Shown here one piece after another: positions 4,615 through 32,655 of a stretch of DNA of 64,000 nt. The notes below the pieces were generated by a model that did not search any database, was not told the origin of the DNA, and saw nothing but the letters and a program-made list of their open reading frames with translations. Within the stretch, counting starts at the first letter, position 1. Every line of letters starts with the position of its first letter. The position numbers and the translations under genes are program-made. The DNA is from Vicinamibacterales bacterium (GTDB lineage Bacteria > Acidobacteriota > Vicinamibacteria > Vicinamibacterales > UBA8438): assembly GCA_965222265.1 (NCBI GenBank), contig CBDCTP010000003.1:2246280-2310279 (forward strand), read 5' to 3'.

Positions 4615-4854
4615 TCACGAATAATGCAGGCTAGGGAGATACCTTTGCAGGGAACGCCTGGTACGTTCTCTTTTGCTGGCAAGGCTGCTGCGCTGTTTTC
4701 TGATAACTACAGGCGTGTATTTCAGCACTTCGCGACCGCCGACCAGCGGCTTCCGGACAGGTACCACCGTTTGCAGTTGCTCACAGATTACGTGTGCGGG
4801 ATGACGGATTCTTTCGCTACGAGGTTGCACAGAGAGTTGTTCAATGGCAGCTAG
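4615..4854 (+). pseudogene. dgt: Dgt-type dGTPase, 3' fragment
   Basis: SRIMQAREIPLQG...ALFSDNYRRVFQHF...RYHRLQLLTDYVCGMTDSFATRLHRELF matches the Dgt C-terminus (E. coli RCRLLQDYISGMTD). G+C falls again exactly after the IS. Confidence 0.75.
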
Positions 4855-5743
4855 GATGACCGTTCCAGAGCTGAAGCAGCTGCTGCGGGCGGAGGTCTGC
4901 AGGCTGTTCAAGCAAGATGATCGACTTTGGAAGCGGCCGATTGTTGAGATGTTGCGAGAACTCAGGGAGTCGGGATTGCAGGCCGTCGTCTTTGGTGGCA
5001 CCCTGCGCTCGCTCTTGTACTCGCGCTTGTATGAATCTCGGCAGGGCCGTCCAAGGGATGTGGATCTTGTCGTGCGGGGCGCGTCCTTACGGGATGTAGA
5101 GGAGCGATTCGGCGAATACGTAGCTAGGCGCACACGCTACGGTGGTCTCTGTTTGAAACGGGAAGGATGGCAATTCGATGTATGGCCGGTGGGCAACACG
5201 TGGGCATTCCGGAACGAGACCTATCGTAACGCCGGTTTCGCGGAGCTTCCCTTCACAACGCCATTCAACCTTGAGGCGATCGCCGTGGAGGCGTGGCCTT
5301 GCGTCGGCCGTCCTCGGCAGGTGTTTTCCGGCGATGATCAGTTTTTTGAGGGTATCCTTTCAAGGATCGTGGAACTCAATTGCACCGACAACCCGTATCC
5401 GGCGCTGACGGTGGTACGCGGACTCGTGCTGGCGACAGACCTCGGTTGCCATGTGGGGCCACGACTTGCGGACTATATCGTCGCATACGGTTCTTCCATG
5501 ACAGAGTCTCAATTCGATGAACAGCAACTGGGACACTATGGGTGTATTCGGCTTGACTCGCGGGTGTTGCGTTCAATTGTTGAATCGATTGTGAAACAAC
5601 GCGACAAAGTGTCGGTGATTCCGCTGCCGAGAGTCCGTCAGCTGTCGCTGCAGTATGATCAGGATGTGCGCCCGCGCGTCCGATTGCACTGTATGGACTA
5701 CGATTCTCAGCGGAAGCCCAGTGCGCGGCGGGCAGTGGACTGA
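4844..5743 (+). CDS. Pol-beta superfamily nucleotidyltransferase, CCA-adding/poly(A)-polymerase head-like; C-terminal half unassigned
   Basis: VFGGTLRSLL...PRDVDLVV (G[GS]...DxD), a third acidic residue in WQFDVW, and PFNLEAIA resembling the FTINA motif. Its ATG overlaps the dgt stop by 11 nt. Alternative in-frame ATG at 4856. Confidence 0.6.
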   Translation: MAARMTVPELKQLLRAEVCRLFKQDDRLWKRPIVEMLRELRESGLQAVVFGGTLRSLLYSRLYESRQGRPRDVDLVVRGASLRDVEERFGEYVARRTRYGGLCLKREGWQFDVWPVGNTWAFRNETYRNAGFAELPFTTPFNLEAIAVEAWPCVGRPRQVFSGDDQFFEGILSRIVELNCTDNPYPALTVVRGLVLATDLGCHVGPRLADYIVAYGSSMTESQFDEQQLGHYGCIRLDSRVLRSIVESIVKQRDKVSVIPLPRVRQLSLQYDQDVRPRVRLHCMDYDSQRKPSARRAVD

Positions 5744-5977
5744 AGTGAGCGGATTCAGTATTTGTATCGTCCGTGGCTGTCGGACCCGGCGTAGAACCGC
5801 AGCGCTGATCGTCGGTTGACGGTGCCGGACCCGTGCTCGGCCGACCTTGCGGGAGTCGGCGCCGTTCTACGATGCGGACTCGTGGCCCGCGACCTCGCGC
5901 TGGAGGGAAGCGCGGCCGGTTCGTTACAATGCATGGCCTGGCCGGCGGGCGCCGGCCGGGATGACGGGGGACACGCG

Positions 5978-16890: not shown

Positions 16891-17186
16891 CGTTCCGCTA
16901 CCGCCCGCAGGTGCTCGACGAGCTCGCGACCTACGGCGTGCGCCCGACGCCGCGGACGCGCCCCGAGCTGGTGCACGAGTACGTCAACGACCTCTACCGG
17001 TTCGAGCTGCGGCGCCTGCGCGCGCGCCACGTGGGGGGCGAGATTCCCCGGCCCGCGTATTCGGCGCACGTGGTCGAGCTGCGCAAGAAGTACATCCTGG
17101 TCTCGGTGCCGCTGCGGCTGTGGACCTTCCCGGCCCACCCGGCGGTCTCGGGCGAGACCCCGCCGGGCGCCGAGGCGCCCGGCTGA
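16887..17186 (+). CDS. hypothetical protein (99 aa)
   Basis: GTG overlaps the aldolase stop (GTGA). The composition is non-repetitive and protein-like (RPELVHEYVNDLYRFELRRLRARH). No family recognised. Confidence 0.4.
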   Translation: MTFRYRPQVLDELATYGVRPTPRTRPELVHEYVNDLYRFELRRLRARHVGGEIPRPAYSAHVVELRKKYILVSVPLRLWTFPAHPAVSGETPPGAEAPG

Positions 17187-17196
17187 CAGCCCTGCC

Positions 17197-17595
17197 TCAG
17201 CGTCCGAGCCAGGCGAGCATGTTGCCGGTCGTCACGGCCGGCGTGCCGTTGCGGAAGCGGTGGCGGGACGGGGTCGTCAGCGCGCGCATCTCGGCGTGCG
17301 CGGGCGAGCCGTAGCGCGGCGGGGCGTTGCGCAGGTCGAACCCGTCGAACACCTCGAGCACCGGGGCCTCCGGCGCCAGCGCGTTGACCCGCACGTAGAA
17401 GCGCAGCCGCAGGATGTCCCCGGCGTTGTCGACGGCGGGCAGCCGGTCGAGCTGGCGCCTGATGCGGTCGAGCGAGACCGGGAGCGCCGCGGCGTCGAAC
17501 GAGGCGTCGTCCTCCGCGGCCTGCCCGGCGCCCGCCAGCGCGGGGGACGCCGGCAGCAGGACGAGCGCGATCGCCAGCGCGATGACGGCCCGCAT
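17197..17595 (-). CDS. hypothetical secreted protein
   Basis: Signal peptide MRAVIALAIALVLLPASPALAGA. The start was chosen downstream of the repeat-derived N-terminal extension. Confidence 0.45.
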   Translation of the reverse strand: MRAVIALAIALVLLPASPALAGAGQAAEDDASFDAAALPVSLDRIRRQLDRLPAVDNAGDILRLRFYVRVNALAPEAPVLEVFDGFDLRNAPPRYGSPAHAEMRALTTPSRHRFRNGTPAVTTGNMLAWLGR

Positions 17596-17648
17596 CCCCT
17601 TCAAGCTACGAGCCCGGCCGCGACTTGTCAATACCCGCGGCCCGCCGG

Positions 17649-17734
17649 CCCGCCTCGGCGGGAGCGGCGCGGGGCGCAGGGGTCCCCGCAAGCGGACGCC
17701 GGGGGTTCGGGGCGCAGCCCCGTCTGATTGAAGC
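17649..17734 (+). repeat. structured intergenic repeat, copy A1 (5'-divergent/truncated)
   Basis: cgcctcggcgggagcggcgcggggcgcaggggtccccgcaagcggacgccgggggttcggggcgcagccccgtctgattgaagc. It is identical to A2 over this span. Confidence 0.95.
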
Positions 17735-17844
17735 GCAGACTCCCCAAGGCGCGCACAGCGCGCCTCGGCGGGAGCGGCGCGGGGCGCAGGGGTCCCCGCA
17801 AGCGGACGCCGGGGGTTCGGGGCGCAGCCCCGTCTGATTGAAGC
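17735..17844 (+). repeat. structured intergenic repeat, copy A2 (full core)
   Basis: gcagactccccaaggcgcgcacagcgcgcctcggcggg...ccccgtctgattgaagc, lying 110 bp in register after A1. Confidence 0.95.
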
Positions 17845-17858
17845 TACGATCGCTTCCC

Positions 17859-18854
17859 ATGTGGCTCTTCTGGGCGCCGGGGGTGCTCGCGCTGGCGGCG
17901 GCGGTGTTCCTGCTGGCGCGCCGGCTGCACGCTGCCCGCGATCACGAGGCGCGCCTCCGGGCGCGCCTCGCGGCCGTGCTCGCCGCCCGCGCGGCCGGGC
18001 TCGCGGTCTGGAGCCCGGACGGCCGGCTGGTGGCGTGCAATCCGCGCTTCCGCGAGTTCTATCCGGACGTGCCGATCCGGCCGGGCCTGGAGCTCGAGGA
18101 TCTCGTGCGCTTCACCGTCACCCGCGGGCTGGTCCAGGTGCCGGAGGCGGAGGTCGAGGCCTGGGTGCAGGCGCGGCTGGCGGGCGCCCGCGCCGCGGCG
18201 TGCGACGTGGTGCGCACCGCCGACGGCCGCTGGCTCGAGATGCGGGTCGGTCCGTCGGACGGCGGCGAGACGCTGCTGCTGTACACCGACGTCACCGCCG
18301 CGCACGAGGCCGCCGCGGCGCTGGCCGAGCGCGACGCGCAGCTCGACGGCCGGGCGGCGGATCTCGAGCTGCTGCAGGCCGCGCTGGCGGCCGCGGGCGA
18401 GGCCGGCTCGTTCGAGGCGGCCGCGCGGCGGATCAACGAGCAGGTCTGCCGCTGGGCCGGCTGGCCGGTCGGCCACGCCTGGCGCGCGGCGGACGGCGGC
18501 GCCGCGCTGGCGCCGTGCCCCGCGGCGCTCGTGATCGACGGCGACGGCTTCGAGCCGCTGCGGGCGGCGCTGGCGACCGAGCGGCCGGCGCGGGGCGAGG
18601 GCCTCGCCGGGCGCGTGCTGCAGGCGGGGCGCGTCGTCTGGGTCGCCAACACCGAGAGCGATCCGACGTTCCCGGCCGCGCGCCGGGCGAGCATGCCCGG
18701 CATTCGCGGCGCGTGCGGGGTGCCGGTCAAGCGGGGGGAGCAGGTGGTCGCCGTGCTCGAGTTCCTCGCGCGCGAGCAGCTCGCGCCGGTGGAGGCGACG
18801 ACGCGCCTCCTCGAGAGCGTGGGCCGGGCGCTGGGGTCCGTTGACTATTACTAG
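17859..18854 (+). CDS. membrane-anchored PAS-GAF sensor protein without a recognisable output domain
   Basis: One N-terminal TM segment. PAS-like WSPDGRLVACNPRFREFY...LLLYTDVT. C-terminal GAF-like GLAGRVLQAGRVVWVANTESDP...ACGVPVKRGEQVVAVLEF. The ATG at 17859 is preferred to the TTG at 17838, which lies inside the repeat. Confidence 0.7.
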   Translation: MWLFWAPGVLALAAAVFLLARRLHAARDHEARLRARLAAVLAARAAGLAVWSPDGRLVACNPRFREFYPDVPIRPGLELEDLVRFTVTRGLVQVPEAEVEAWVQARLAGARAAACDVVRTADGRWLEMRVGPSDGGETLLLYTDVTAAHEAAAALAERDAQLDGRAADLELLQAALAAAGEAGSFEAAARRINEQVCRWAGWPVGHAWRAADGGAALAPCPAALVIDGDGFEPLRAALATERPARGEGLAGRVLQAGRVVWVANTESDPTFPAARRASMPGIRGACGVPVKRGEQVVAVLEFLAREQLAPVEATTRLLESVGRALGSVDYY

Positions 18855-19219
18855 TCCCCGGACCCGCGGACAGCGTCTGCGTGCCGCCGGATGATGTCGC
18901 ACACATCCTTCACGATGTTCCCCGAGCTGCGGACGTTGTCCCGGTCGCCCACCAGGTGCCCGCTGCTGTCCCAGACCAGGGCGTAGTGCCGCTCTTCGAA
19001 CTCGAACCACACGGTGTAGTCCGCCAGCTCCTCGCGCGCCACCGGAACCACCGTCTCGCACTCGCTGCGGCTCCCCAGGTTCATGATGTACTCGTAGCGC
19101 GTCGGGCCGTCATCTCCCAGCGCGAAGTCTGCAATCGGGGCCACGAACAGCGTCTGCGCGGACAGGTGGGGCACGAACGCCGCAACGAACACCGCGGTCA
19201 ACATCATCTTCTTCGTCAT
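18851..19219 (-). CDS. small secreted hypothetical protein
   Basis: GGGAGG lies 5 nt upstream of the ATG. Signal peptide MTKKMMLTAVFVAAFVPHLSA. G+C is lower than in the neighbouring genes. Confidence 0.5.
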   Translation of the reverse strand: MTKKMMLTAVFVAAFVPHLSAQTLFVAPIADFALGDDGPTRYEYIMNLGSRSECETVVPVAREELADYTVWFEFEERHYALVWDSSGHLVGDRDNVRSSGNIVKDVCDIIRRHADAVRGSGD

Positions 19220-19295
19220 GGCTACCTCCCTCGACGCGCTCATTCTATCCGCGCTTGCCGGGCCCGGCTCAGCCGCAGTCGGTGAGGATCAGACC

Positions 19296-19943
19296 TCAGT
19301 CGAGCCGCCGCAGCACGGCGGCGGCCAGCGCCGCGAGGGGCCGGGCGCCGTCGACGACGAGGTCGGCGTGGCGCCGCGTAGGCTCGACGTAGCGCACGAA
19401 CATCGGCTGCACGGTGGCGCGCCACTGCGCCCGCACGGCCGCGGCCGTCCGTCCGCGCTCGCGCGTGTCGCGCGCCACGCGCCGGCCGAGGCAGATCTCC
19501 GCGTCGGTGGCGACGTAGACGCGGGTCGCCAGCAGCGCCCGCACCGCCGCGTCGTACAGCGCCAGCCGCCCCTCCACGACGACCACGCGGCCGGGGACCA
19601 GGCGCTCGGTCCGGGGGCTCCGGACGTGGTGGCGGAAGTCGTAGACGGGCCGCTCGACGGACCGACCCGCGGCCAGGCGGCGGAGGTGGTCCCGCAGCAG
19701 GTCCCAATCGAGCGCCGCCGGTCCGTCGTAGTCGAGACGGCCGCGGGCGCCGGGCTCCACGCCGCCGCGGTCGACGTAGTACGCGTCCAGCGACAGCACG
19801 TCGCCGGGCGCGCCGAGGAGCGTGGCGGCCAGTTCGCGGGCCAGCGCGGTCTTGCCGGCGCCGGAGTGGCCGGCGATGCCGATCAGGTGCGGGGGAGGGG
19901 CCACCGGCAGCCCCGGGCGCGGCGGCGCGGCGGGCACGGTCAT
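19296..19943 (-). CDS. udk: uridine kinase / PRK-family nucleoside kinase
   Basis: P-loop IGIAGHSGAGKTALAREL, LSLDAYY, and PVYDFRHHVR...VVVVEGRLAL. Confidence 0.85.
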   Translation of the reverse strand: MTVPAAPPRPGLPVAPPPHLIGIAGHSGAGKTALARELAATLLGAPGDVLSLDAYYVDRGGVEPGARGRLDYDGPAALDWDLLRDHLRRLAAGRSVERPVYDFRHHVRSPRTERLVPGRVVVVEGRLALYDAAVRALLATRVYVATDAEICLGRRVARDTRERGRTAAAVRAQWRATVQPMFVRYVEPTRRHADLVVDGARPLAALAAAVLRRLD

Positions 19944-19986
19944 GGCAGCACAACGAGCTGCTCGGGACTTGCCGCCCGTACGGCGG

Positions 19987-20097
19987 TCACGCCAATCGTC
20001 CGGTCGAAGGTGACGAAGCGCCCGCGGCGCGGTGATGCTGGACGTGATCGCGATCGAGCAGGGCCAGGATGACGTTGACATCCAGCAGAGCGCGCAC
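19987..20097 (-). pseudogene. vapC: vapC (PIN-domain toxin) remnant, 36 codons
   Basis: The GTG lies 14 nt after the vapB stop. VRALLDVNVILALLDRDHVQHHRAA matches VapC N-termini and then diverges to a stop. Only about 150 nt remain before udk, too few for a PIN domain of about 130 aa. Confidence 0.45.
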
Positions 20098-20111
20098 GTC
20101 CGCTCCGGCAG

Positions 20112-20351
20112 TCAGGCGAGATCGTCGTCCCGCAACCGGTTGATCAGCTCGTTGGTCACCGGCCGGCCGCGCGCGGGAAGCGGGTGGAAGCCGTAGAATC
20201 CATCGCCCGCGGCGGCGCTGTCGGGCGCCCCCGCGGAGAGCCCCTTGCGCGCCAGCTCGGAGAGCACCGACCCGGCGCTCCTGCCGTCCCGGCGCGCGAG
20301 CTCCTTGACGGTCAACAGGATGTCGTCGTCCACATTGAGCGTGGTGCGCAA
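20112..20351 (-). CDS. vapB: type II antitoxin, VapB family
   Basis: MRTTLNVDDDILLTVKELARRDGRSAGSVLSELARKGL is the canonical VapB_antitoxin N-terminus. Confidence 0.8.
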   Translation of the reverse strand: MRTTLNVDDDILLTVKELARRDGRSAGSVLSELARKGLSAGAPDSAAAGDGFYGFHPLPARGRPVTNELINRLRDDDLA

Positions 20352-20401
20352 GCATCGGATGCTAGCACGTCACAGCGATCCATAGCGGGGGAGCAGTCCC
20401 G

Positions 20402-20572
20402 ATGCTCAGACTTCTCGAGCGCCTCGCTTCGTGGCAACTCGCCGCGCTGGCGGCGGCGTTGTTCGTGGTCGACCTCGCGATTCCGGACCCGCTGCCGTTT
20501 GTCGACGAGACCCTCCTGGCGGTGCTCACCTACCTGCTGGCGCGCCGCAAGCGCCGGCCGCCGCCGACGTGA
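20402..20572 (+). CDS. small membrane protein (56 aa), DUF6116-like
   Basis: Not in the ORF track, which seems to omit ORFs under 60 aa. I translated it by hand: MLRLLERLASWQLAALAAALFVVDLAIPDPLPFVDETLLAVLTYLLARRKRRPPPT. GGGGGAG lies 8 nt upstream. Confidence 0.4.
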   Translation: MLRLLERLASWQLAALAAALFVVDLAIPDPLPFVDETLLAVLTYLLARRKRRPPPT

Positions 20573-20606
20573 TCGGGGGCCCGCCGGCCTGCCGGGGGGT
20601 GCGCGG

Positions 20607-21968
20607 TCAGCCGGCGGTCGCCGTCGCACGGACCCGCGCGTCCAGGTCGGGCGGCGCCAGGAAGGCGTGCAGCTTGCGGCCGCGCCGCCGCCTGTCGAGC
20701 AGCCCGATCTCCGCCAGGTGGAACAGGTCGGCCCGGGCCGTGGCGTACGCGACGTTGTGGCTGGTCATGTGCGATCGCGTCGTGTATTCCTCGCTCGGGT
20801 AGCGGGCGGCGTGGGCGAGCAGCGCCAGTTGGCGGTGGTTGAGGTCGGTGCGGTGCCGGAGCAGCTGCTCAACGCGTTGCACCTGCGCCACCTTCCTGTC
20901 GATGTAGCGGTCGAGCTCGTCGATCGCCTGCAGAATCACGTCGACCTGATGCACGAGGAAGTACGTCACGTCGTTCGCGTCGGTCTCCGTGTGGAGGAAC
21001 GCCCGGGCGTACTGCGCTGGCGCCGCCTTCAGGAACGGGCTGATCGACACGAACTCGAACATCCAGTAGCTGCGGTGCAGCAGCGCCCAGTAGAAGAGCG
21101 CGCGCGCGGTGCGCCCGTTGCCGTCCGCGAACGGGTGGTCGTACGCGAGCCAGAAATGGAGTACGATGGCGCGGATGACCGGGTGCAGGAAGTGCGCGCC
21201 GGTCGCCCGCGGACCGTCATCCGCGCTGGCGAACTGCACCATCTCGCGCAGCCGCTCCGGTAACTGCTCCGCCGCCGGCGGGCGGTGGAGCACGAGCTCG
21301 TGGCGGGCATCGCACACCTCGACACGGTCGTCGGCCGGGTTCTGCAGCCGGCCGCCGGCGTCCGGATCGTCGAGCGTGCCATAAGTAACCGTGCGATGCA
21401 GCGCGAGCACCGTCTCGCACGTCAGCGGGCGTTCGCTGATCTCGCGAATCTCTCGCATGGCGAGGTAGTTGTTCAGGATCATCCGCTCGCTGCGATTCCG
21501 CGGGCGCCGGTTCGCCCGGATCATGCGGGTGGCCGCTGCGCGCGTCGTCGAGGCGCCCTCGAGCTGGCTCGATGTGATCGCTTCCTGAATCAGGGAGTTG
21601 ACGATGAACCGGTCGCGGGTCACCTTGTTCGTCACCGCCTTGGCCACGCCGATCCGACCGCTGGCGCGGCTGTCGATCAGGTGCAGCGCCTCCTGCACGC
21701 GGTCCGGGAGCATGTACGTGAACGGCCGCCCCCGCGCATCGCGGAGCGGGAGCGGCCGGGACTGCTGAGTCCGTGCCAACCGAATGCCGGTCCACCATTC
21801 GCTGGCGGACAAGTCGTGCGGTCGGGGGCGCTGTCGCCGCAGCGTGTCCCAGTGGAAGTAGCGGCCGTCCACGGTCGGCTGCATGGCCTGCGAGAGGATC
21901 GCCGACAGACGCTCCTGGTGCAGGTCGATCAGCTTCGTCAGCGGCGCCGGGGCGAGCGGTCTCTTCAT
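20607..21968 (-). CDS. Fic family protein (class II, N-terminal inhibitory motif), C-terminal wHTH-like region
   Basis: Fic core HPFADGNGRTARALFYW. An upstream SSQLEG fits the (S/T)xxxE(G/N) inhibitory helix. Start chosen at MKRPLAPAPL. Confidence 0.85.
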   Translation of the reverse strand: MKRPLAPAPLTKLIDLHQERLSAILSQAMQPTVDGRYFHWDTLRRQRPRPHDLSASEWWTGIRLARTQQSRPLPLRDARGRPFTYMLPDRVQEALHLIDSRASGRIGVAKAVTNKVTRDRFIVNSLIQEAITSSQLEGASTTRAAATRMIRANRRPRNRSERMILNNYLAMREIREISERPLTCETVLALHRTVTYGTLDDPDAGGRLQNPADDRVEVCDARHELVLHRPPAAEQLPERLREMVQFASADDGPRATGAHFLHPVIRAIVLHFWLAYDHPFADGNGRTARALFYWALLHRSYWMFEFVSISPFLKAAPAQYARAFLHTETDANDVTYFLVHQVDVILQAIDELDRYIDRKVAQVQRVEQLLRHRTDLNHRQLALLAHAARYPSEEYTTRSHMTSHNVAYATARADLFHLAEIGLLDRRRRGRKLHAFLAPPDLDARVRATATAG

Positions 21969-21994
21969 GGCCGTCTGATGTCGACAGCTACGCT

Positions 21995-22023
21995 GTTCAT
22001 CAATCTTAGGATAATTGATGAAC
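21995..22023. promoter_or_regulatory. perfect 10-bp inverted repeat GTTCATCAAT-N9-ATTGATGAAC in the Fic / Cld-like divergent intergenic region
   Basis: Read directly: gttcatcaat cttaggata attgatgaac, lying 27 nt upstream of the Fic ATG (21968) in an AT-rich spacer. Confidence 0.35.
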
Positions 22024-22070
22024 GGCGATGAAAGTACATCACCGCCACTCGGTATAGAATCGACACGACC

Positions 22071-22835
22071 TTGACGCAACCGGATCACGCCGACGCCTCA
22101 TCCGTTCCGGACCTCCTGGAGCACGGGGCGCCCGTGCGCGGGCAGCCGCAGACGCTGGATACGCGGCTGTTCGTGCAGTTCCTGGCGTTCACCGAATGCC
22201 TCGACACCGCCCCGGTGGTGGCGGCGTTCGAGCGGAGCGGCCTCGCCGGGGCCGTCTACGCGAACGTGAACGACCCGCGCGGCATCGCCGTGGTGACCAT
22301 GGACGAGGATCCGGCGCTCTTCGCCGGCCCGGTGCGCGCCCTGCTCACCGCGCCCCCCTTCAGCACGCTGACGCCGCTGCCGGCCTTCACGATGTTCGGG
22401 CGGACCTACGCGCAGGGCCGCGAGGCCGACCTCGAGGACTTTCTGCTCTACAAGGTCCGCCGCAGCGTGCTGAATCCGCGCAGGCCCTGGGCGGTCTGGT
22501 ACCCGCTGCGCCGCATCGGCGCGTACAACCGGCTGCCGCGCCCGGAGCAGGGGAGGATCATGATGGAGCACGGGATGCTCGGGCGCCGCTACGGCGAGGC
22601 CGGGTACGCCAGCGACGTGCGGCTCGAATGCCACGGCATCGATCGCGACGACAACGAGTTCGTCATCGGCCTGATCGGCGCCGAGCTGTACCCGCTGTCG
22701 AAGCTGGTCAAGGACATGCGGGCGACGCGGCAGACCGCCGAGTTCATCGCCTCGATGGGGCCCTTCTTCGTCGGCAGGACGCTGTTCCAGGCGCCGGTTC
22801 CGGAGCGGGCGCGGGCGCGGGCGGGCGGAGCATGA
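22071..22835 (+). CDS. chlorite dismutase family protein (Cld/HemQ-like)
   Basis: FVQFLAFTEC, GIAVVTMDEDP, MMEHGMLGRRYGEAGY, EFVIGLIGAELYPLSKLVKDMRATRQTAEF. TTG start. Confidence 0.78.
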   Translation: MTQPDHADASSVPDLLEHGAPVRGQPQTLDTRLFVQFLAFTECLDTAPVVAAFERSGLAGAVYANVNDPRGIAVVTMDEDPALFAGPVRALLTAPPFSTLTPLPAFTMFGRTYAQGREADLEDFLLYKVRRSVLNPRRPWAVWYPLRRIGAYNRLPRPEQGRIMMEHGMLGRRYGEAGYASDVRLECHGIDRDDNEFVIGLIGAELYPLSKLVKDMRATRQTAEFIASMGPFFVGRTLFQAPVPERARARAGGA

Positions 22836-24310
22836 CGCGCGGCCGCGAAGCCCTCGACCGGCTGCCGCTCCCCGAGATGAACCCGCGCGGGTTGATGCGC
22901 CACTTCGGGCCCGGCCTGATCCTGATGATGACCGGCGTCGGCACCAGCCACATGGTGACCGCCCCGGTGGCCGGCGGGCGGTTCGAGTACGCCCTGCTCT
23001 GGTGCATTCCGGTCGCGTACATCTTCAAGTACTACGGCTTCGAGATGGCGTTCCGGTTCACCAACGCCACCGGCCGCAGCATGCTCGACGCGTACACCAC
23101 GGCGCCCGGCAAGTGGCCGGTCTGGTACGTGCTGATCACCACCGTCGTCCAGTGCGCCCTGGGGCAGGCCGGGCGGCTGGCGGCGGCGGCGGCCGTGCTC
23201 TACTTCGTCGTCTCGCAGTACCTGGGCCTGGGCCTTCCGGCCTGGGTGTACGGACTGGGGCTCGGCCTGCTCTCGGTCAGCATCATCCTGTACGGACGCT
23301 ACGCGGCGGTGGAGCTGGCCACCAAGGTGCTGGCCGGCATGCTGTTCGTCTCGACGGTCGGCGTGTACCTGTTCCAGCCGGCCCCGCTGTCGGCGATGGG
23401 CCACTTCTTCACCGTCGAGACGCCGATCGGTTCCTGGCTGACCATCGCGGCCTTCCTCGGCCTGTTGCCGACCGGCATCGACGTGTCGCTGCAGGCCTCG
23501 GAGTGGGGCAAGGCGAAGCGGGTGGGGATGGGGCGCATCCGCGAGCAGATGGAGGCGGACGGGTTGGCCCGGCGCTTCGACGCGTTCGGACCGCGGCTGG
23601 AGGACCTGACGGTGGACGTCTCGAAGCTGCCGGCGCACGCGCAGGAGTACTGCCGGCGCTGGTTCCGCATCGGGATCTGGGACTTCTCGCTGGGCCACGT
23701 GGTGTCGTTCATCCTGGCCTCGATCTTCCTGCTGCTGGCCGCCGTCTGGCTCTATCCGAGCGAGGTGGCCGGCAACGCGGTGATCGGCGAGATCGCCCGC
23801 ATCTTCACGGACAGCATCGGCCCCGGGATGATGCTGGTCTTCCTGCTGGGCGCCTTCGCGGCCACCTTCTCGACCGCGTTCAACTACTTCGACGGCTGGC
23901 CCCGCGTGGTCGCGGCCTGCTGCCGCAACCTGTTCCGGAGCACGGCGGCGTTGCCGGGCATTGCCGCCGACGAGCTGACCGACGGCAAACGCGGGACGCC
24001 GGTCTCCGAGTACAACATCTACCGCATCACGATGCTCTACTCGCTCGTGGCTTCCGTCCTCATCATGGTGGGGTTGCCGCGCCCGGTGTTCCTCGTGCTG
24101 GTCTCGTCGGCGCTCGCGCTGTTCATCGCGCCGGTCATATACTTCCTGAACCTGTACTACTGCGTGACGGTGATTCCGAAGACCGACACGGTGTTCTATC
24201 CGTCGCTGGCCGTCCGCGCCTTCGCGTGGTTCAGCCTGGCCGTCTTCACCGCCCTGACCGCGATCGTCATCCTGGCACGCGTGTTCAACGTCACGTTGTT
24301 CGGAGCATGA
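22832..24310 (+). CDS. NRAMP-family divalent metal cation transporter
   Basis: The ATG overlaps the Cld-like stop (ATGA). FGPGLILMMTGVGTSHMVTAPVAGGRFEYALLW is followed by about 11 TM segments. Confidence 0.82.
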   Translation: MTRGREALDRLPLPEMNPRGLMRHFGPGLILMMTGVGTSHMVTAPVAGGRFEYALLWCIPVAYIFKYYGFEMAFRFTNATGRSMLDAYTTAPGKWPVWYVLITTVVQCALGQAGRLAAAAAVLYFVVSQYLGLGLPAWVYGLGLGLLSVSIILYGRYAAVELATKVLAGMLFVSTVGVYLFQPAPLSAMGHFFTVETPIGSWLTIAAFLGLLPTGIDVSLQASEWGKAKRVGMGRIREQMEADGLARRFDAFGPRLEDLTVDVSKLPAHAQEYCRRWFRIGIWDFSLGHVVSFILASIFLLLAAVWLYPSEVAGNAVIGEIARIFTDSIGPGMMLVFLLGAFAATFSTAFNYFDGWPRVVAACCRNLFRSTAALPGIAADELTDGKRGTPVSEYNIYRITMLYSLVASVLIMVGLPRPVFLVLVSSALALFIAPVIYFLNLYYCVTVIPKTDTVFYPSLAVRAFAWFSLAVFTALTAIVILARVFNVTLFGA

Positions 24311-24323
24311 CGAGGTCGGCCGC

Positions 24324-25328
24324 TTGAAGGTCTGCGTCGTCGGAGCGGGCGCCATCGGCGGCTACATGGCCGTGCGCCTCGCGCACGCGGGGCACGAGGT
24401 GGCGGTCGTCGCGCGCGGGGCCCACCTGGCGGCGATTCGCGAGCGGGGGCTGACGCTGGTCGAGGCCGACGAGGAGCTGACGGCGGCGCCCGCGGCGGCG
24501 ACCGACCGGATCGGCGACCTCGGCCCCCAGGACCTCGTGCTGCTCGCGCTCAAGGCCCACCAGATCGTGGCGGTCGTCGACGAGCTGCCGGCCCTGCTCG
24601 GTCCCGGGACGGTCCTCGTGACCCTGCAGAACGGCGTCCCCTGGTGGTACTTCCAGAAGCTGGACGGCGAGTTCGCGGGCCGCGTGGTGACCGCGGTCGA
24701 CCCGCGCGGCGTCCTGTTCGACCGCATCGATCCGGACCGCCTGATCGGCTGCATCGCCTATCCGGCGGCCGTCGTCGCCCGGCCGGGCGTCATCCGCCAC
24801 ATCGAGGGCAACCGGTTTCCGGTCGGCGAGCTCGACGGGCGCGAGACCGAGCGCGTGCGGCGGGTCTCGGCGGTGTTCACGGAGGCCGGCTTCAAGGCGC
24901 GCATCCTCGACGACATCCGGTCGGAGATCTGGCTGAAGCTGTGGGGCAACCTGACGTTCAACCCGATCAGCGCGCTGACGCACGCCACGCTGGTCGATAT
25001 CTGCCGCTTCCCGCTGTCGCGGGAGTTGGCGGCGGCGATGATGACCGAGGCGCAGGCGGTGGGCGAGCGCCTGGGCGCCGGGTTCCGGGTGCCGCTGGAG
25101 CGGCGCATCGACGGGGCGGAGGCGGTCGGGCGGCACAAGACGTCGATGCTGCAGGACGTGGAGGCGGGCAAGCCGCTCGAGATCGACGGCATGCTGGGTG
25201 CGGTCGTCGAGCTCGCCGAGCTCACCGGCATCGCGGTGCCGACCCTGCGGGCGCTCTACGCGTGCGTGAGCCTCCTGGACCGGACGATCCGCGACGAGGG
25301 GATGCGGATAGCCGGTGCTCCCCGCTAG
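24324..25328 (+). CDS. panE: 2-dehydropantoate 2-reductase (ketopantoate reductase family)
   Basis: MKVCVVGAGAIGGYMAVRLAHAGHEV Rossmann N-terminus, KLWGNLTFNPISALT, and TSMLQDVEAGKPLEID. Confidence 0.85.
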   Translation: MKVCVVGAGAIGGYMAVRLAHAGHEVAVVARGAHLAAIRERGLTLVEADEELTAAPAAATDRIGDLGPQDLVLLALKAHQIVAVVDELPALLGPGTVLVTLQNGVPWWYFQKLDGEFAGRVVTAVDPRGVLFDRIDPDRLIGCIAYPAAVVARPGVIRHIEGNRFPVGELDGRETERVRRVSAVFTEAGFKARILDDIRSEIWLKLWGNLTFNPISALTHATLVDICRFPLSRELAAAMMTEAQAVGERLGAGFRVPLERRIDGAEAVGRHKTSMLQDVEAGKPLEIDGMLGAVVELAELTGIAVPTLRALYACVSLLDRTIRDEGMRIAGAPR

Positions 25329-25329
25329 C

Positions 25330-25425
25330 ACGGCGCGCACGGCGCGCCTCGGCGGGAGCGGCGCGGGGCTGTGGGGTCCCCGCAAGCGGACGCCGGGGGT
25401 TCGGGGCGCAGCCCCGTCTGACTGA
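25330..25425 (+). repeat. structured intergenic repeat, copy B
   Basis: cacggcgcgcacggcgcgcctcggcgggagcggcgcggggctgtggggtccccgcaagcggacgccgggggttcggggcgcagccccgtctgactga. Flanked by CGCTAGC at 25323-25329 and 25426-25432. Confidence 0.95.
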
Positions 25426-25442
25426 CGCTAGCGGAGAGGTAG

Positions 25443-26687
25443 ATGAAGGCGCTCGAGGGAGTTCGGGTTCTCGACATGACGCACGTGCAGTCCGGTCCGA
25501 GCTGCACGCAGTTGCTGGCCTGGTTCGGGGCCGATGTCATCAAGGTGGAGCGGCCGGGCACCGGCGACGCCACGCGCCACCAGCTGCGCGACGTTCCCGA
25601 CGTCGACAGCCTCTACTTCACGATGCTCAACCACAACAAGCGCAGCCTCACGCTCGATACCAAGCGCGAGCGGGGCAAGGCGCTGTTCGCGCGGCTGCTC
25701 GAGATTTCCGACGTGCTGACGGAGAACTTCGCGCCCGGCGCGCTCGACCGGATGGGCTTCTCCTGGGAGCGCATCCAGGCGATCAACCCGCGCCTCATCT
25801 ACGCCTCCGTCAAGGGGTTCGGGCGGGGGCCGTACGAGCGCTACAAGGTCTACGAGAACATCGCGCAGTGCGCGGGCGGGGGCGCCAGCACGACCGGCTT
25901 CGACGACGGGCCCCCGACGGTGAGCGGCGCCCAGATCGGCGACTCCGGCACGGGGCTGCACCTGGCGCTCGGCATCGTGACGGCGCTCTTCCAGCGCGAG
26001 CGGACCGGCCGCGGCCAGCGCATCGTGTGCGCGATGCAGGACGCGGTGCTGAACCTGTGCCGTGTCAAGCTGCGCGACCAGCAGCGTCTGGCGCACGGGC
26101 CGCTGACGGAGTACCCGCAGTACCCCTACGGGACGTTCGGCGACGCCGCCCCGCGGGCCGGCAACGCGTCCGGGGGAGGGCAGCCCGGCTCGGTGCTCAA
26201 GTGCAAGGGCTGGGAGGACGACCCCGACGCGTACGTCTACGTCATCGCGCAGGCGTCGGCGTTCGACGGGCTGGCGCGCGTGGTCGGGCGGGCGGACTGG
26301 CTGGAGGATCCGGAGTGGAACACGCCCGGAGCGCGGCTGGCCAAGCTCGACCAGGTCTTCGACGCCATCGAGCAGTGGACCCTGACGAAGACCAAGTTCG
26401 AGGTCATGGAGATTCTCACGCCGCTCAAGGTGCCGTGCGGGCCGGTGCTGTCGATGCGGGAGCTGGCCGAGGACCCGGCGCTGCGCGCCACGGCGACCAT
26501 CGTCGAGGTCGACCACCCGGCCCGCGGGCGGCACCTGTCCGTGGGGTGTCCCATCAAGCTGTCGGATTCGCCGGTGGAGGTCACGCGCTCGCCGCTGCTC
26601 GGCGAGCATACGGAGGAGATCCTGACGGGTCTGCTCGGCCTGGACGAGGCGGCCCTGGCCGCCACCAAGGCCGACGGCGCGGTATAG
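25443..26687 (+). CDS. frc: formyl-CoA:oxalate CoA-transferase
   Basis: Collinear with Oxalobacter Frc over the whole length: [123 protein letters not shown]. Confidence 0.9.
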
Positions 26688-26709
26688 GAGGCGGTACAGG
26701 AGCTGGACC

Positions 26710-27594
26710 ATGAAACACGCCAACGCTCTCGCGCGGGTCCCCGTCACGCTGGCGCTGGCGGCCGGCGCCGTCGTTCCGGCCGCGTCGTCCTCGGGCCTGG
26801 AGGTGTCGCATCGCGCGCGCGCCCTGCACCCCGGCGAGGTGGTCGTGATCGAGGTGCGGCCGTCGCTGACGCCGCTGTCGGTGGAGGCCACCGCCTTCGG
26901 CCACGAGGTGCGCTTCTTCGAGGGGGAGTCGGACGGGGTCTGGCGCGGCCTCGTCGGCATCGACCTGACGGTGGAGCCGGGCGCCTACGACGTCGCGGTG
27001 CGGGCCGCGATCGGCACCGGTGCGGCGGTGCACGCCACCTACACGCTCGAGGTCGAGCCCAAGGAGTTTCCGACGCGCCACCTGCGCGTCAATCCGAGCT
27101 TCGTGGACCCGCCGCAGGAGGTGATCGACCGCATCCTGCGCGAGGCGGACGAGGTGGCGGCGATCTTCCGCGGCGCCAGCCCCGAGCGGCTGTGGCAGGG
27201 CGGGTTCGCGGCGCCCGTGCCGGGCCGGCCGACCAGCAGCTTCGGCCGCCGCAGCGTCTACAACGGCCAGCCGCGGAGCCCGCACAGCGGGACCGATTTC
27301 CGGGCCGGCACGGGCGTGCCGATCAAGGCGCCGAACGCGGCGACCGTCGTCCTGACGGGCGATCTCTACTTCTCCGGCCAGGTGGTGATCCTCGACCACG
27401 GCTGGGGGCTGTACTCGTACTTCGCCCACCTCTCGGCGGTCGACGTCGCCGCGGGCGACGTGGTGACCCGCGGCCAGGTCGTCGGGCGGGTCGGCGCGAC
27501 GGGGCGCGTCACCGGGGCGCACCTGCACTGGACCGTACGCCTGAACGACGCCCGCGTCGACCCGCTGTCGCTGATGGAGCTGCTCGCAGACTGA
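26710..27594 (+). CDS. M23 family metallopeptidase
   Basis: HSGTDFRAGTGVPIKAPNAATVV, ILDHGWGLYSYFAHLS, GRVGATGRVTGAHLHWTVRLN. Confidence 0.88.
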   Translation: MKHANALARVPVTLALAAGAVVPAASSSGLEVSHRARALHPGEVVVIEVRPSLTPLSVEATAFGHEVRFFEGESDGVWRGLVGIDLTVEPGAYDVAVRAAIGTGAAVHATYTLEVEPKEFPTRHLRVNPSFVDPPQEVIDRILREADEVAAIFRGASPERLWQGGFAAPVPGRPTSSFGRRSVYNGQPRSPHSGTDFRAGTGVPIKAPNAATVVLTGDLYFSGQVVILDHGWGLYSYFAHLSAVDVAAGDVVTRGQVVGRVGATGRVTGAHLHWTVRLNDARVDPLSLMELLAD

Positions 27595-27697
27595 CCTCGC
27601 GCGCGCACGTCCAGCGCTGACGGCACCCCGGCAGGTCGAGCCGCCTACCTGAGCGGCGGGCTTGCGACAGACGTCAGGAAGGGCACCACCGCAGGCG

Positions 27698-28909
27698 TTA
27701 GCTCGGGTCGCCCACCGGCGGCAGAAAGCTCAGCATCCGCTCGCTCCGCGGCCGGTACGTACCCCCGCTCAACTCGATGAGACCCTCCTGCAGAAGCCAG
27801 TTGATGTCGCGCGTGAGCGTCTTGTCGGTCTTGCCTGCGTAGAGGGCGGCCACCGTTGGATTGAGACCACGGAGATCCGCTCTTGGGGGCGGCACCTGCT
27901 GATTGCTCAGCGCCAAGACCAGTTCGAGACGGCGGTGGAGCGCCGGCGACCGCCGCTTCGCCCGGAAAATGCCGAAAACGAAATGCTGCCACGCGATGGA
28001 CAATTGGATGACGTTGACGTATTCACACTGCTCCACTAGGCCATCGACGAAGCCTTGCAACGCATACAGAACGAATTCGATGGGGTCACCCTGACCGCTG
28101 TTCGCTCGGCTCGCCCGATCGAGCTGCCGGTAGTAGTCGGTACGCGTTCGATTGTAGTGATTACTCAGCACGTGTGCCGACGTCAGCGGAACCCCGGCAT
28201 TGGCCAACAGCATGAGTTCGACCAGACGCGCCGTACGGCCGTTGCCGTCGCCGAAGGGGTGAATCCATGCGATGTACAGGTGAGCGACGATCGCCTTGAA
28301 GATGGCCACCGCCACCCGGTTCTCACGCGGTTGGCCGAACACCGGCGGCAGCTGTTCTCCGTTCAGCCACTCGCAGAGCCGATCCAAGAGAAACGCACAG
28401 TCCGCACGAGGAGCCCCCCGATAGTGACCGACGCCCACGACGCTTGTTGGAATCTCGCCGGGAACGACCCCGTCTTCCAGGTGTTCATCGAGACCTTGCA
28501 GCACTCGTCGATTGCAGTCCGCAATCCATTCCGGAGTCAGCTGGATCTGGCCCCCGCTGACAATGGTGGCCTCGATGTCGTTGCAGGCTTGCACGACGTT
28601 GTCTACCTCCTGACCCAGGTATTCCTGCGATGGTGGCAGTCGACGCCGGCCTTCGAGACGGTCACGGATTTGCTCCTCGCTGAGCGTGTTGCCCTCGATC
28701 GCCGTTGTCGCCTGCGCCCCCTTGATCAGGTATAGGCTCTGCATCGTCTGCGCGTTGCCGGGCGGTAGTGCGGCGGCGGCGATCTGTCCGCAGCGGGCCA
28801 CCGCTTGGCCAAGCAACACCCAGAGACGGTGTCCTGCGGGACGGAGATCCAGCTCGAACGTGATCCACGGGTGGCTGCGCTCGTAGGCGCGGACGTTCAT
28901 TGAGGCCAT
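27698..28909 (-). CDS. Fic family protein (class II), C-terminal wHTH-like region
   Basis: Fic core HPFGDGNGRTARLVELM. An upstream TTAIEGN fits the inhibitory motif. The alternative ATG at 28900 has a better-spaced AAGGA. Confidence 0.85.
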   Translation of the reverse strand: MASMNVRAYERSHPWITFELDLRPAGHRLWVLLGQAVARCGQIAAAALPPGNAQTMQSLYLIKGAQATTAIEGNTLSEEQIRDRLEGRRRLPPSQEYLGQEVDNVVQACNDIEATIVSGGQIQLTPEWIADCNRRVLQGLDEHLEDGVVPGEIPTSVVGVGHYRGAPRADCAFLLDRLCEWLNGEQLPPVFGQPRENRVAVAIFKAIVAHLYIAWIHPFGDGNGRTARLVELMLLANAGVPLTSAHVLSNHYNRTRTDYYRQLDRASRANSGQGDPIEFVLYALQGFVDGLVEQCEYVNVIQLSIAWQHFVFGIFRAKRRSPALHRRLELVLALSNQQVPPPRADLRGLNPTVAALYAGKTDKTLTRDINWLLQEGLIELSGGTYRPRSERMLSFLPPVGDPS

Positions 28910-29248
28910 CCTTGGTGCTCCAAGTTCAGAATATCGGCACCGCCTGTTGATTATAGTGCGTAAATTGTCCCATAGAGTGTCTCGTAGGATGTCCCATGTC
29001 GTCAGGGGGCACCGCGCCGAGACGGCTTGGCTCGACGGCAAGGCTGAAAGAACGTCGGGCTGATGTAGGGATACTCGAGTGCGTGCCTGCACCTGGTGCG
29101 TAGGGATTGCGAAGCGGATCCACGAGGGGCAGCTTGCGTCAACGATGCCCGTGAAATCATGCTCGACGTCCGGCGTCTCTCATCACGACGTCTCGTATCG
29201 CAGAACAGCGTTGCGCCCGCCGGGTCGGTTAGACTGGGCTCCGGCTTG

Positions 29249-30046
29249 GTGACGGAACGTTCCACCCTGGCGCTGCCATCGGCGCTCGACCCCGGCCAGG
29301 CGGGCCGCTGGCGGCGCGTCCGCGGCGGCGGCGGCGTCGTCTGTCTGGACTACGACGGCACGCTGACGCCGATCGTCGCGCGTCCCGAGCTGGCGGCGCT
29401 GCCCGCGGCGATGCGCGCGACGCTGCGGCGGCTGGCGGCGGCGCTGCCCGTGGCCATCGTGTCCGGGCGGGACGTCGCGGTCGTGGCCGGGTTCGTCCGG
29501 CTCGACGGCCTGGCCTACGTGGGCAGCCACGGGCTCGACATCGTCGGGTTCCCCGGCAGCGGCCTCCGCAGGGAGCTGGCGCTCGACTTCGTGCCGGAGC
29601 TCGACCGCGCGGAGCGCCGGCTGCGGGCGGAGACGGCGCCGGTCGCCGGCGCCATCGTGGAGCGCAAGCGGTTCAGCGTCTCGACGCACGTCCGCCTCGT
29701 CGCGCCGGCGGAGCGCGCGCGCGTCGACGCGCTCGTGGGCCGCGTGCAGCAGGCGCATCCGTCGCTCCGCCGGGAGGGCGGCAAGCTCGTGCACGAGCTG
29801 CGGCCGGACATCGAGTGGGACAAGGGGCGGGCGGTGTGCTGGCTGGTCGAGGCCCTCGGGCGCGATCTCTCGTCCGCCCTCTTCATCGGCGACGATCTCA
29901 CTGACGAGACGGTCTTCCGCGTCCTGGCCGGGCGGGGCGCCGGCGTCGTCGTCGCCGAGACCGACCGCCCGACCGCCGCGGAGCTGCGCCTCGGCCACCC
30001 GGGCGAGGTGCGCACGCTGCTGGAGCGGCTGGCCGGGAGCGGCTGA
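29249..30046 (+). CDS. otsB: trehalose-phosphatase
   Basis: HAD motif I VCLDYDGTLTP, VAIVSGRD, ELRPDIEWDKGRAV, FIGDDLTDE. Start uncertain (GTG 29249, TTG 29246 or ATG 29159). Confidence 0.8.
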   Translation: MTERSTLALPSALDPGQAGRWRRVRGGGGVVCLDYDGTLTPIVARPELAALPAAMRATLRRLAAALPVAIVSGRDVAVVAGFVRLDGLAYVGSHGLDIVGFPGSGLRRELALDFVPELDRAERRLRAETAPVAGAIVERKRFSVSTHVRLVAPAERARVDALVGRVQQAHPSLRREGGKLVHELRPDIEWDKGRAVCWLVEALGRDLSSALFIGDDLTDETVFRVLAGRGAGVVVAETDRPTAAELRLGHPGEVRTLLERLAGSG

Positions 30047-30052
30047 TGTAGC

Positions 30053-30448
30053 CTAGTCTCCCAGCCGGGCGCCCCGGACGTGCTTGTGGCACTGGACGCA
30101 GTTGAGCGTCATCTCCATGTAGGCCAGCGACACGCCGTCGATGTTGCGTGCCGCCGCCGCCTCCATCAGCGCGTGGGCGGATCCCCGGAAGTCGGCCGCG
30201 TAGCGCAGGTACTGGGCCGTCTGGAGCGGGCTCCAGGTCGACACCTCGCTCAGGGCCACCAGCTCGTTGGCGATGCGCTCCACCCGGCCGTGATCGCCGA
30301 GCACCACCGCCGCCAGCAGCTCCTGGGCGTGGTCGAGCTTGTCGCGCATCAGTTGGCTCAGGCTGGGCACCTGCGCCGAACCGGTTGTCGTCAGCGCCAG
30401 GATCAGCAGGAGGGCCGCCGTCAGGGTGGCTCGTGTCCGTTGCCTCAT
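30053..30448 (-). CDS. cytochrome c'-like (class II) c-type cytochrome
   Basis: Signal peptide, helical body, and a single C-terminal heme motif CVQCHKH. AAGGA upstream of the ATG. Confidence 0.62.
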   Translation of the reverse strand: MRQRTRATLTAALLLILALTTTGSAQVPSLSQLMRDKLDHAQELLAAVVLGDHGRVERIANELVALSEVSTWSPLQTAQYLRYAADFRGSAHALMEAAAARNIDGVSLAYMEMTLNCVQCHKHVRGARLGD

Positions 30449-30546
30449 GATCCGTCCTTTCGCATGCATGTACGCATGATCGCATCCACGCTTGATCCGC
30501 CACAAGCTTCTGGCGGATCATTTTGCGTCACGGGAAGGAGAACGCG

Positions 30547-31026: not shown

Positions 31027-31030
31027 GCCA

Positions 31031-32189: not shown

Positions 32190-32191
32190 CG

Positions 32192-32623: not shown

Positions 32624-32655
32624 CGGATGCACCTCCACCTGTTGTCGCGTCCGAA

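Follow-up and report, generated by a model that had tools for sequence, protein, structure and literature searches.

The unit at positions 17735-17844 raises the question of why copies of a repeat should differ in their hairpin loops and in a hypervariable triplet while their stems stay intact, a pattern that an earlier note on this DNA ascribed to selection on secondary structure. The unit lies in a 64,000-nt stretch of a Vicinamibacterales genome, referred to below as the window, which contains ca. 10 copies of it. In the reading preferred here, to which a probability of about 0.5 is attached, it is one unit of a high-copy, order-wide, non-autonomous repeat of ca. 100 nt that carries three hairpins and is actively turning over, and whose stems, together with some unpaired bases, would be selected on the sense strand, most simply as co-transcribed RNA.

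The focal locus and the copies of the window

Positions 17735-17844 span a single unit of this GC-rich repeat, while the locus as a whole is a two-unit tandem in which a 5'-truncated unit lies directly upstream of the complete one. The tandem sits between a divergent upstream ORF and the gene of a PAS-GAF protein, the ATG of which is at 17859. The focal unit scored 118.8 bits against covariance model R1 (genome G000, contig C3:2264014-2264123). Its parts and the other copies are given below, where G000 is the genome of the window and the other G numbers are relatives.

17640-17737, forward strand: 5'-truncated unit without H1, beginning in CCTCGGCGGGAGC; first of the two-unit tandem, with the 35-nt core at 17679-17713
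17733-17847, forward strand: complete (focal) unit, whose first letters, GCAGACTCC, form the 3' arm of cap hairpin H0 and whose last are GTCTGATTGAAGC
17747-17765, forward strand: hairpin H1 of the focal unit, A-GGCGCGC, loop ACA, GCGCGCC-T
17766-17811, forward strand: hairpin H2 of the focal unit, with outer stem CGGCG/CGCCG, GGA/GGA internal loop, GC/GC and inner G/C helix
17786-17788, forward strand: hypervariable triplet in the H2 loop of the focal unit, GCA
17818-17832, forward strand: hairpin H3 of the focal unit, CGGGGC, loop GCA, GCCCCG
17833-17844, forward strand: A/T-richer 3' tail of the focal unit, TCTGATTGAAGC
25317-25431, forward strand: single uncapped unit between an upstream TAG stop and a downstream GGAGAGG ribosome-binding site with ATG; site empty in G002 and G004, filled in G005
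31027-31164, forward strand: capped unit with degenerate H0; the site is empty in G002, occupied by family B in G004 and by four units in G005
33546-33695, forward strand: unit with collapsed cap; site empty in G002
38953-39091, forward strand: capped unit with one H3 stem change (GCAACCCC); opposite-orientation four-unit array in the same intergenic region of G004, empty in G002 and G005
41687-41748, forward strand: mini element, H0 cap fused to the H3 end, with a 12-nt duplication (CGGTTCGGGTAG) on its flanks
45021-45078, reverse strand: 3' half-unit between convergent genes
50148-50290, reverse strand: capped unit, the 3' tail of which overlaps the adjacent gene at its final codons and TAG stop; same site occupied in G005
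61149-61360, reverse strand: tandem of a capped unit and, after it, a 5'-truncated one, within a 4.8-kb stretch absent from G002

Chance is excluded for these copies by match counts far above those of shuffled DNA: with up to 3 mismatches allowed, the 35-nt core matches the window 10 times and 100 shuffles not once, and the H1 pattern has 11 at up to one mismatch against a shuffle mean of 2.49 and maximum of 7.

The details first described for these copies were recovered. The H1 stem GGCGCGC-NNN-GCGCGCC, said to be unchanged in seven copies, occurs with zero mismatches at 17748, 25332, 31065, 33596 and 38992 on the forward strand and at 50230 and 61306 as the reverse complement, with loop ACA at 17748, 31065 and 50230 and loop ACG at 25332, 33596, 38992 and 61306. 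The H3 loop is GCA in most copies, ACA in the 33.6k copy and in the partial 61.15k copy, and GCCA at 61.2k, and the two exceptions reported for the H3 stem are the 39.0k copy (GCAACCCC) and the mini copy at 41687-41748 (GGGC). The triplet located between CGGGGC and GGGGTCCCC varies by locus, reading GCA, TGT, GTA, TGT, TGC, AGA and AAG(G). An eighth zero-mismatch match to the H1 pattern, with loop GAA, is located at 53068.

Abundance and architecture of the family

A profile built from the window copies, and afterwards extended, gave 402 matches in 327 loci of the 6.01-Mb genome (G000; three contigs, 70% GC), with a density alike on all three contigs. Most loci consist of a single unit (264), the others of two (53), three (8) or four (2), and orientation is mixed at seven of them. 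A 374-kb stretch with many IS and reverse-transcriptase genes is free of the repeat, and a plasmid collection contained no match to the element, nor to the contig C2 stretch.

Each unit is ca. 100-110 nt long and is made of H1, H2, H3 and an A/T-richer tail. The consensus opens with an optional cap, (C)TAG-GGAGTCTGCGCCG-TAGAA-CGGTGCAGACTCC, then GCAA, and continues with H1 (GGCGCGC-ACA-GCGCGCC), with H2 (CGGCG-GGA-GC-...GGGGC-NNN-GGGGTCCCCGC-AA-GC-GGA-CGCCG), with GGGG-TT and with H3 (CGGGGC-GCA-GCCCCG), which is followed by the tail TCTGATTGAAGC. Loci are built of an optional H0 cap and one to five tandem units, the cap being common to a second family, B, and also found alone. This build is a mosaic of the BIME or BOX kind, in which the modules vary in combination and the central unit in tandem number. 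Partial copies are 5'-truncated in 39 cases and 3'-truncated in 5.

Location relative to genes

The units lie mainly 5' of genes and are oriented with them. Gene positions come from a crude GC3-based caller that covered 78% of the genome and for which starts are approximate; on this basis, 139 loci fall in divergent regions and 25 in convergent ones, for a background of 724 and 714, respectively, and 111 of the 156 loci located between co-directional genes are in sense orientation. The 3' end has a ribosome-binding site followed by a start codon and an ORF no more than 40 nt away at 43 of 320 loci, compared with 8 of 320 for the 5' end and 3% of random intergenic points. Orientation relative to replication showed no significant bias (121 of 218 loci, p = 0.12), the direction being inferred from GC skew alone, which is monotonic on C1 and C2 and on which the inferred origin and terminus are based.

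Three further observations were set aside. The finding of zero loci inside genes was discarded as evidence, the gene caller having masked the elements. A preference for TAG stop codons was rejected (TAG accounts for 23 of the 54 stops nearby and ends 41% of all called genes), as was the view of H3 and the tail as a Rho-independent terminator, none of the four elements in 17000-35000 being listed by a terminator scan and the tail containing no more than 4 T per 9 bases.

Four libraries from two studies, labelled metatranscriptomic, include contigs of up to 2.4 kb that carry the element internally and vary at the same triplet positions. These contigs, which belong to many other organisms, have no visible transcript ends and possibly include DNA carry-over, are compatible with co-transcription of the element and no proof of it.

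Some REP elements have been shown to act as cis RNA on the stability, processing or translation of neighbouring genes, and each copy of the present repeat might similarly be kept at the level of the host as a folded 5' UTR or intercistronic RNA that stabilises, processes or tunes the translation of its neighbours. The sense bias (111 of 156) and the location of 3' ends beside ribosome-binding sites and start codons (43 of 320 against 8 at the 5' end) are in line with such a role, as are the units found exactly between a stop and the next ribosome-binding site at 25.3k and at G005 loci 2 and 21, the loci shared by G000 and G005 that differ only at hot spots (e.g. locus 24) and the excess of G-U over A-C in stems described below. 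What argues against it, besides the failure of the terminator scan to list H3 and the tail, is the dispensability of individual copies.

Spread and turnover among relatives

The element was matched in 12 of 13 other genomes of the genus, and full-length covariance-model matches were obtained in 28 of the 151 genomes that were sampled evenly across the order, representing 19 of 79 genera and several families. At shorter range, units are gained and lost between species that are ca. 92% identical, and turnover is high. Comparison of 80-kb regions of three congeners with flanks 90-95% identical indicated that syntenic G002 (90-95% identical) has the element at none of eight window loci; this genome, the closest relative by flank identity, gave 82 first-look candidates against 386-456. 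The focal site is empty in G002, whereas G011 and G012 each have one truncated unit there, G004 has five units, and G005 has a unit plus an IS. More generally, unit number, orientation and even the repeat family vary at the same site between species. Twenty G005 loci were mapped onto G000, and ca. 7 of the 14 compared side by side were read as having no family-A unit there. The composition of the family also differs, the T131/A145 variant being present in 19 of 34 copies in G005 against 11 of 323 in G000.

Orthologous sites that appear empty contain 9-30 nt of unrelated spacer and no clean junction. The phase of the units is particular to each tandem array, which points to local slippage. Overall, intergenic DNA gains and loses units, and multiplies them in tandem, over the time in which species diverge. 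Set against the idea of a cis-acting RNA kept copy by copy for the host, the absence, truncation or fivefold presence of the focal element in G002, in G011/G012 and in G004, the ca. 7 of 14 G005 loci without a family-A unit in G000 and the low candidate count of G002 make that explanation unlikely.

Variation among copies

Variation was measured over 278 genome copies that span H1 to the 3' end, on 86 module columns of which 58 are paired and 28 unpaired in the RNAalifold consensus. The contrast noticed in the window, stems intact while loops and triplet vary, was borne out genome-wide: the comparison of stem and loop substitutions that had been suggested gave a mean non-consensus fraction of 0.013 for paired and 0.095 for unpaired columns, or 1.3% against 9.5% (Mann-Whitney p = 3.4e-4; 278 copies), and the ten columns with more than 10% non-consensus bases (model positions 70, 99, 100, 101, 113, 118, 129, 130, 137 and 138) are all unpaired (Fisher p = 3.7e-6).

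Among the 278 copies, the triplet was found in 26 forms (GCA in 126, GAA in 65, TGT in 17, TAT in 10, and others), and it has a length of 3-5 nt in other genera, while the third base of the H1 loop is A in 163 genome copies, G in 102 and C in 11. The statement that loops vary nevertheless holds for particular positions only, since 14 of the 28 unpaired columns are nearly invariant, including the AC of the H1 loop and two G-tracts; primary sequence is thus constrained too. The variable sites are independent of one another, with 191 haplotypes among 278 copies and associations found solely within the triplet and within the H3 loop. Subfamilies were accordingly rejected as the source of the variable sites.

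In 38 pairs of adjacent tandem units with at most 3 differences, 40 of the 50 differences occur in the 25 unpaired of 66 positions, 12 of them in the triplet. Near-identical neighbours that differ mainly in loops fit a mutation hot spot in loops as well as selection. The arms of a palindrome can correct each other through intramolecular template switching, and the whole pattern might therefore be mutational, with hairpin loops as hot spots and arms that self-correct by template switching or gene conversion, structure itself being free of selection. The independence of the variable sites (191 haplotypes) fits recurrent hits of this kind, and the genome-specific composition in variants suggests homogenisation. 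On the other hand, half of the unpaired columns are invariant, so that the unpaired state does not in itself amount to mutability. Two further results, given next, weigh against a purely mutational origin, which is considered improbable: the existence of three outer-H2 versions within an architecture conserved across families, which is hard to account for without selection on pairing, and a strand-specific asymmetry of G-U over A-C.

Covariation across the order

Double changes already occur within the genome. Eight G-C to C-G changes were found at H1 pair 62/76 and nine C-G to T-A changes at H3 base pair 131/145, whereas the H2 pairs 83/120, 87/116 and 88/115 have 3, 4 and 4 doubles, respectively, with few singles.

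For comparison across the order, 84 copies (83 distinct) from ca. 25 genomes were aligned to a covariance model built from 65 same-genus copies. Pairing extends to 93.4% of the cells in this alignment, compared with 85.0% in shuffled controls (0 of 500 reach the observed value) and 38-50% when the partners are slid. Both sides have changed in 16 of 31 pairs (8.6 expected) and in 189 cells against 64. Covarying pairs are distributed over H1 (7 of 8), the outer H2 stem (5 of 5), GC/GC (2 of 2) and H3 (2 of 6), and both-side change was found in 0 of the 8 pairs of the inner H2 helix. At the base pair of H3, 50 copies have C-G and 31 have U-A.

Three complementary versions of the outer H2 stem occur: CGGCG/CGCCG with the GGA/GGA internal loop, GCGAGG/CCGAGC with tandem G-A, and perfect 10-bp stems that differ in sequence. 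The covariation figures are biased towards structure by the fitting of the alignment to it and by the relatedness of the copies; the slid controls and the three outer-H2 versions argue that the signal is real. Stems are thus kept by compensatory changes across the order. The proposal that secondary structure is under selection, primary sequence alone being insufficient, is supported at the level of sequence comparison, substitutions being uneven and compensatory changes present; the opposite outcome, evenly spread substitutions with no compensation, was looked for in the large alignments and not seen.

Folding energy was no better than that of composition-matched shuffles on either strand (z-scores -1.26 and -1.16), and in DNA of 75% GC the stability of a fold is in itself uninformative. 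In stems across the order, G-U occurs 29 times against 7 for A-C, and most copies have G-U at two further pairs. Together with an orientation that tracks genes, the excess of G-U over A-C points to the sense strand and most simply to RNA.

This asymmetry also bears on the proposal that the element acts at the level of DNA, its palindromes (GGCGCGC-N3-GCGCGCC, GGGGTCCCC and GGGGC-N3-GCCCC) binding a protein or folding as single-stranded DNA for a recombinase, with no role for RNA. The palindromes are identical on both strands, compensatory changes preserve dyad symmetry as well as they do pairing, DNA transposition is attracted to these loci, as the IS-derived cap shows, and other palindromic caps are found at the same module edge in other genera (see below). 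However, the two majority G-U pairs would be A-C on the opposite strand, the 29 to 7 ratio goes in the same direction, orientation follows genes and not the replication direction inferred from GC skew, and no HUH Y1 enzyme was recovered in the genome search, so that a purely DNA-level element appears quite improbable.

The cap hairpin H0 and an IS element

H0, a 37-nt palindrome, is a frequent head of arrays in this genus. In G005, a 1.6-kb insertion sits between both of its arms, and G000 contains at least three full-length IS copies of ca. 1606 bp that encode a DUF772 transposase, are flanked by CTAG and have the H0 arms as terminal inverted repeats; the full-length termini start with CTAG-GAGTCTGCGCCGCAG and end with CTGCGGCGCAGACTC-CTAG. 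This identity of IS terminal repeats and H0 arms identifies H0 as the inverted repeats of an IS5/IS1182-like IS in collapsed form. Other genera have different palindromes next to this edge of the module, (C/T)TAG-G. As cap palindromes vary between genera, the cap is secondary and the module of ca. 100 nt is the conserved entity.

Search for signatures of mobility

Searches for the means by which the module itself spreads gave negative results. RAYT/Y1 transposase (PF01797) had 0 matches in G000, the assembly of which is 94.9% complete, in a search that was positive for 6 of 14 known genomes used as control. No module was found within 1.5 kb of the enzyme loci fetched, namely 6 of 27 RT, 2 of 2 TnpB, 3 of 3 Y2, 3 of 6 IS110 and 4 of 63 matches of the abundant DUF772 IS. 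For the 15 RT and two TnpB genes measured, no element match of any kind lies closer than 5.6 kb, nor closer than 28 kb in the case of the TnpB-type loci. No neighbouring gene recurs as a possible autonomous partner, a flank being common to at most 6 of 320 loci.

Target-site duplication through CTAG/CYAG flanks was not detected, the tetramers agreeing at 6 of 50 loci against 6.39 in shuffles, with no left-right correlation. Duplications of variable length were not in excess either, flank repeats of at least 8 nt occurring at 22 of 320 loci against 7.4% of permuted controls; isolated cases are a 12-nt duplication at 41.7k and another of 12 nt at C3:3501080. As for terminal inverted repeats, the module ends (AAGGCGCGC... 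and ...GTCTGATTGAAGC) are not mutually inverted, and only the separate H0 cap matches IS repeats.

A SINE-like retroelement, transcribed and copied back into DNA by a genomic reverse transcriptase, is very improbable: the predominance of 5' truncation (39 against 5), the A/T-richer tail, the sense strand as the apparently folded one, the 27 RVT_1 matches of the genome and the two 12-nt flank duplications (41.7k; C3:3501080) would suit it, but deletion also yields 5' truncation, the array-specific unit phase points to slippage, the 15 RT genes measured lie at least 5.6 kb from any element with no module within 1.5 kb of six RT loci, and the lack of a general excess of flanking duplications weakens it further.

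Relation to known classes of repeats

MITEs such as Correia, ERIC and RUP are non-autonomous, intergenic, present in hundreds per genome and differ in presence or absence between close relatives. The element shares these properties, and its H0 cap derives from an IS in true MITE-like fashion; unlike MITEs, the conserved module comes without terminal inverted repeats, target-site duplication or a cognate transposase, as far as these were searched for.

The BOX element of Streptococcus pneumoniae has the structure boxA-boxB(n)-boxC, and BOX and the MIRUs of mycobacteria are modular and intergenic with a tandem central unit, show an orientation bias relative to transcription and differ between strains in tandem copy number. 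Modular build, variable tandem central unit, location between genes and orientation bias are all found here. The present element differs from both by its unrelated sequence, its far more structured nature, its order-wide covariation and the lack of small ORFs bridging genes.

REP, BIME and REPINs of proteobacteria, which are mobilised by RAYT/TnpA-REP (PMC3733652, PMC8266576), are high-copy GC-rich extragenic palindromes that occur single, clustered or in tandem, with conserved stems, mosaics with other modules and use as IS insertion targets, and the element resembles them in each of these respects. A REP is defined in PMC3733652 as one short imperfect palindrome of 20-40 nt that ends in a conserved tetranucleotide, GTAG or CGTC. 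No such tag was found at the unit ends, and the unit has three hairpins, not a single palindrome. In contrast to REP and REPINs, the element is thus ca. 100 nt long, three-hairpin and untagged, in a genome in which the search found no Y1/RAYT, and its enrichment 5' of genes and depletion between convergent genes set it apart from REP.

A further likeness exists with TwoAYGGAY RNA (RF01731; bioRxiv 10.64898/2026.09.22.753630) and the cuckoo RNA family, which have several hairpins, many copies per genome and flanking repeats and are defined by structure. These differ from the element in having tens of copies compared with 300-450 here, and the element has no Rfam match; a discrete RNA transcribed from it is so far hypothetical. 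In the whole window, Rfam gave 0 matches at gathering scores, and at E up to 10 the region 17600-17900 gave merely two chance-level matches (E = 1.1 and 9.8). The accessible literature on Acidobacteria repeats, MITEs and REPs yielded no description of this element or of the repeat content of Vicinamibacterales. The element is read as belonging with the interspersed structured repeats of the REP, BIME, BOX and MITE-like kind, yet it lacks the features by which a REP or a MITE is defined.

Proposed mode of action and possible implications

If the preferred reading holds, units would be co-transcribed with neighbouring genes, and the folded molecule would be RNA rather than single-stranded DNA. 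Selection would act on the folded sense strand, its stems and a few unpaired bases (the AC of the H1 loop and the two G-tracts) being needed for persistence or propagation, and the third base of the H1 loop, the H2 triplet, two bases of the H3 loop and the H2-H3 linker would be free to vary. No single copy would be essential to the host.

Vicinamibacterales, of which few members have been cultured, are Acidobacteria that abound in soil and in association with hosts. At 300-450 copies per genome, the element takes up a sizeable share of their intergenic regions and breaks short-read assemblies, and its tandem copy number and presence or absence mark differences at the strain level. It also puts a stable structure, supported by covariation, ahead of many genes. 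A conserved multi-hairpin module combined with lineage-specific IS-derived caps, and devoid of the usual signatures of mobility, offers a tractable case for the spread and possible host co-option of structured repeats.

More speculatively, the element might be a mobile, transcription-oriented cassette of RNA structure upstream of several percent of genes, in which the G-tracts switch the three-hairpin fold to a G-quadruplex or to an alternative pairing, and which spreads without inverted repeats, target duplications or a known transposase family. Such a scheme is rather doubtful; if true, it would make the element a portable regulatory switch. The manner of spread and the invariant G-tracts that flank variable spots are its most interesting loose ends: the unit has four runs of at least 4 G, with precisely the hypervariable triplet and the variable TT linker between them, and the G-tracts scored as unpaired are invariant.

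Insertion sequence related to the H0 cap and second repeat family

The arms of H0, the optional 37-nt palindromic hairpin that occurs 5' of units of family A (the ~100-nt three-hairpin module), are the terminal inverted repeats of an IS of ~1606 bp with a DUF772 transposase, which has CTAG on either side. In G000, the genome containing the window, this IS was found at:

C3:2107582-2110542, DUF772-transposase IS
C3:448711-450316, DUF772-transposase IS
C3:2620652-2622256, DUF772-transposase IS

One copy is nested beside a partial copy, and one adjoins a family-A unit at the 3' end of the unit.

The H0 cap is common to family A and to a second repeat family of G000, family B (~95 nt), in which it precedes TGCAGGGTTGGTTGGGCGCCAAGCGGAGCCG...CGACGATTGGCGGGCTAG. 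By pattern search, ca. 50 copies of family B were detected, including:

C1:881262, family B
C2:113719, family B
C3:735934, family B

At one orthologous site, corresponding to the family-A locus at 31.0k of the window, the same-genus genome G004 carries family B in place of family A.

Palindromes in other genera

Other long palindromes were found 5' of the module in carriers of other genera:

L119 and L146-L151 (module copies of G036), long palindrome
L155, L159 and L160 (module copies of G061), long palindrome

Their sequences differ (GGACCGCTATACGGC...GCCGTATAGCGGTCC and AGCCCGTTATGC...GCATAACGGGCT), and each contains a small hairpin, ACGAGAA-TTTT-GTTCTCGT. These palindromes probably derive from further IS families that inserted at the same edge of the module, (C/T)TAG, and whose ends have collapsed.

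Variable and element-free regions, and candidate retroelements

Window positions 1577-5936 lack an equivalent in the syntenic DNA of three same-genus genomes (G002, G004 and G005) and therefore probably represent a strain-specific island. The GC content there is 61-62%, versus 70-75% in the neighbourhood. A second stretch of ~4.8 kb (58112-62973) is missing from syntenic G002 and has only partial matches in G004 and G005; it holds the tandem family-A copies at 61.2k together with paralogous segments that have repeats D3, D6, D10 and D17 in common with 31.3-32.9k.

In G000, 374 kb of C3 (1755263-2129727) are devoid of element copies, as compared to a median spacing of 8.9 kb elsewhere. This stretch contains numerous IS, IS110-like and reverse-transcriptase genes and has the appearance of a region that was acquired recently or is rich in mobile elements. 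Genome-wide, RVT_1 matches were detected in 27 places (e.g. C1:61696-62325 and C1:63185-63883), often spaced by 1.5 kb, with ORFs of two types, of 496 aa (13 copies) and 523 aa (8 copies); these loci resemble group II intron-like retroelements present in multiple copies.

Finally, TAG terminates 1911 of the 4609 genes (41%) crudely called across the whole G000 genome, a share that seems high for a GC content of 70% and that may in part be an artefact of the gene caller.
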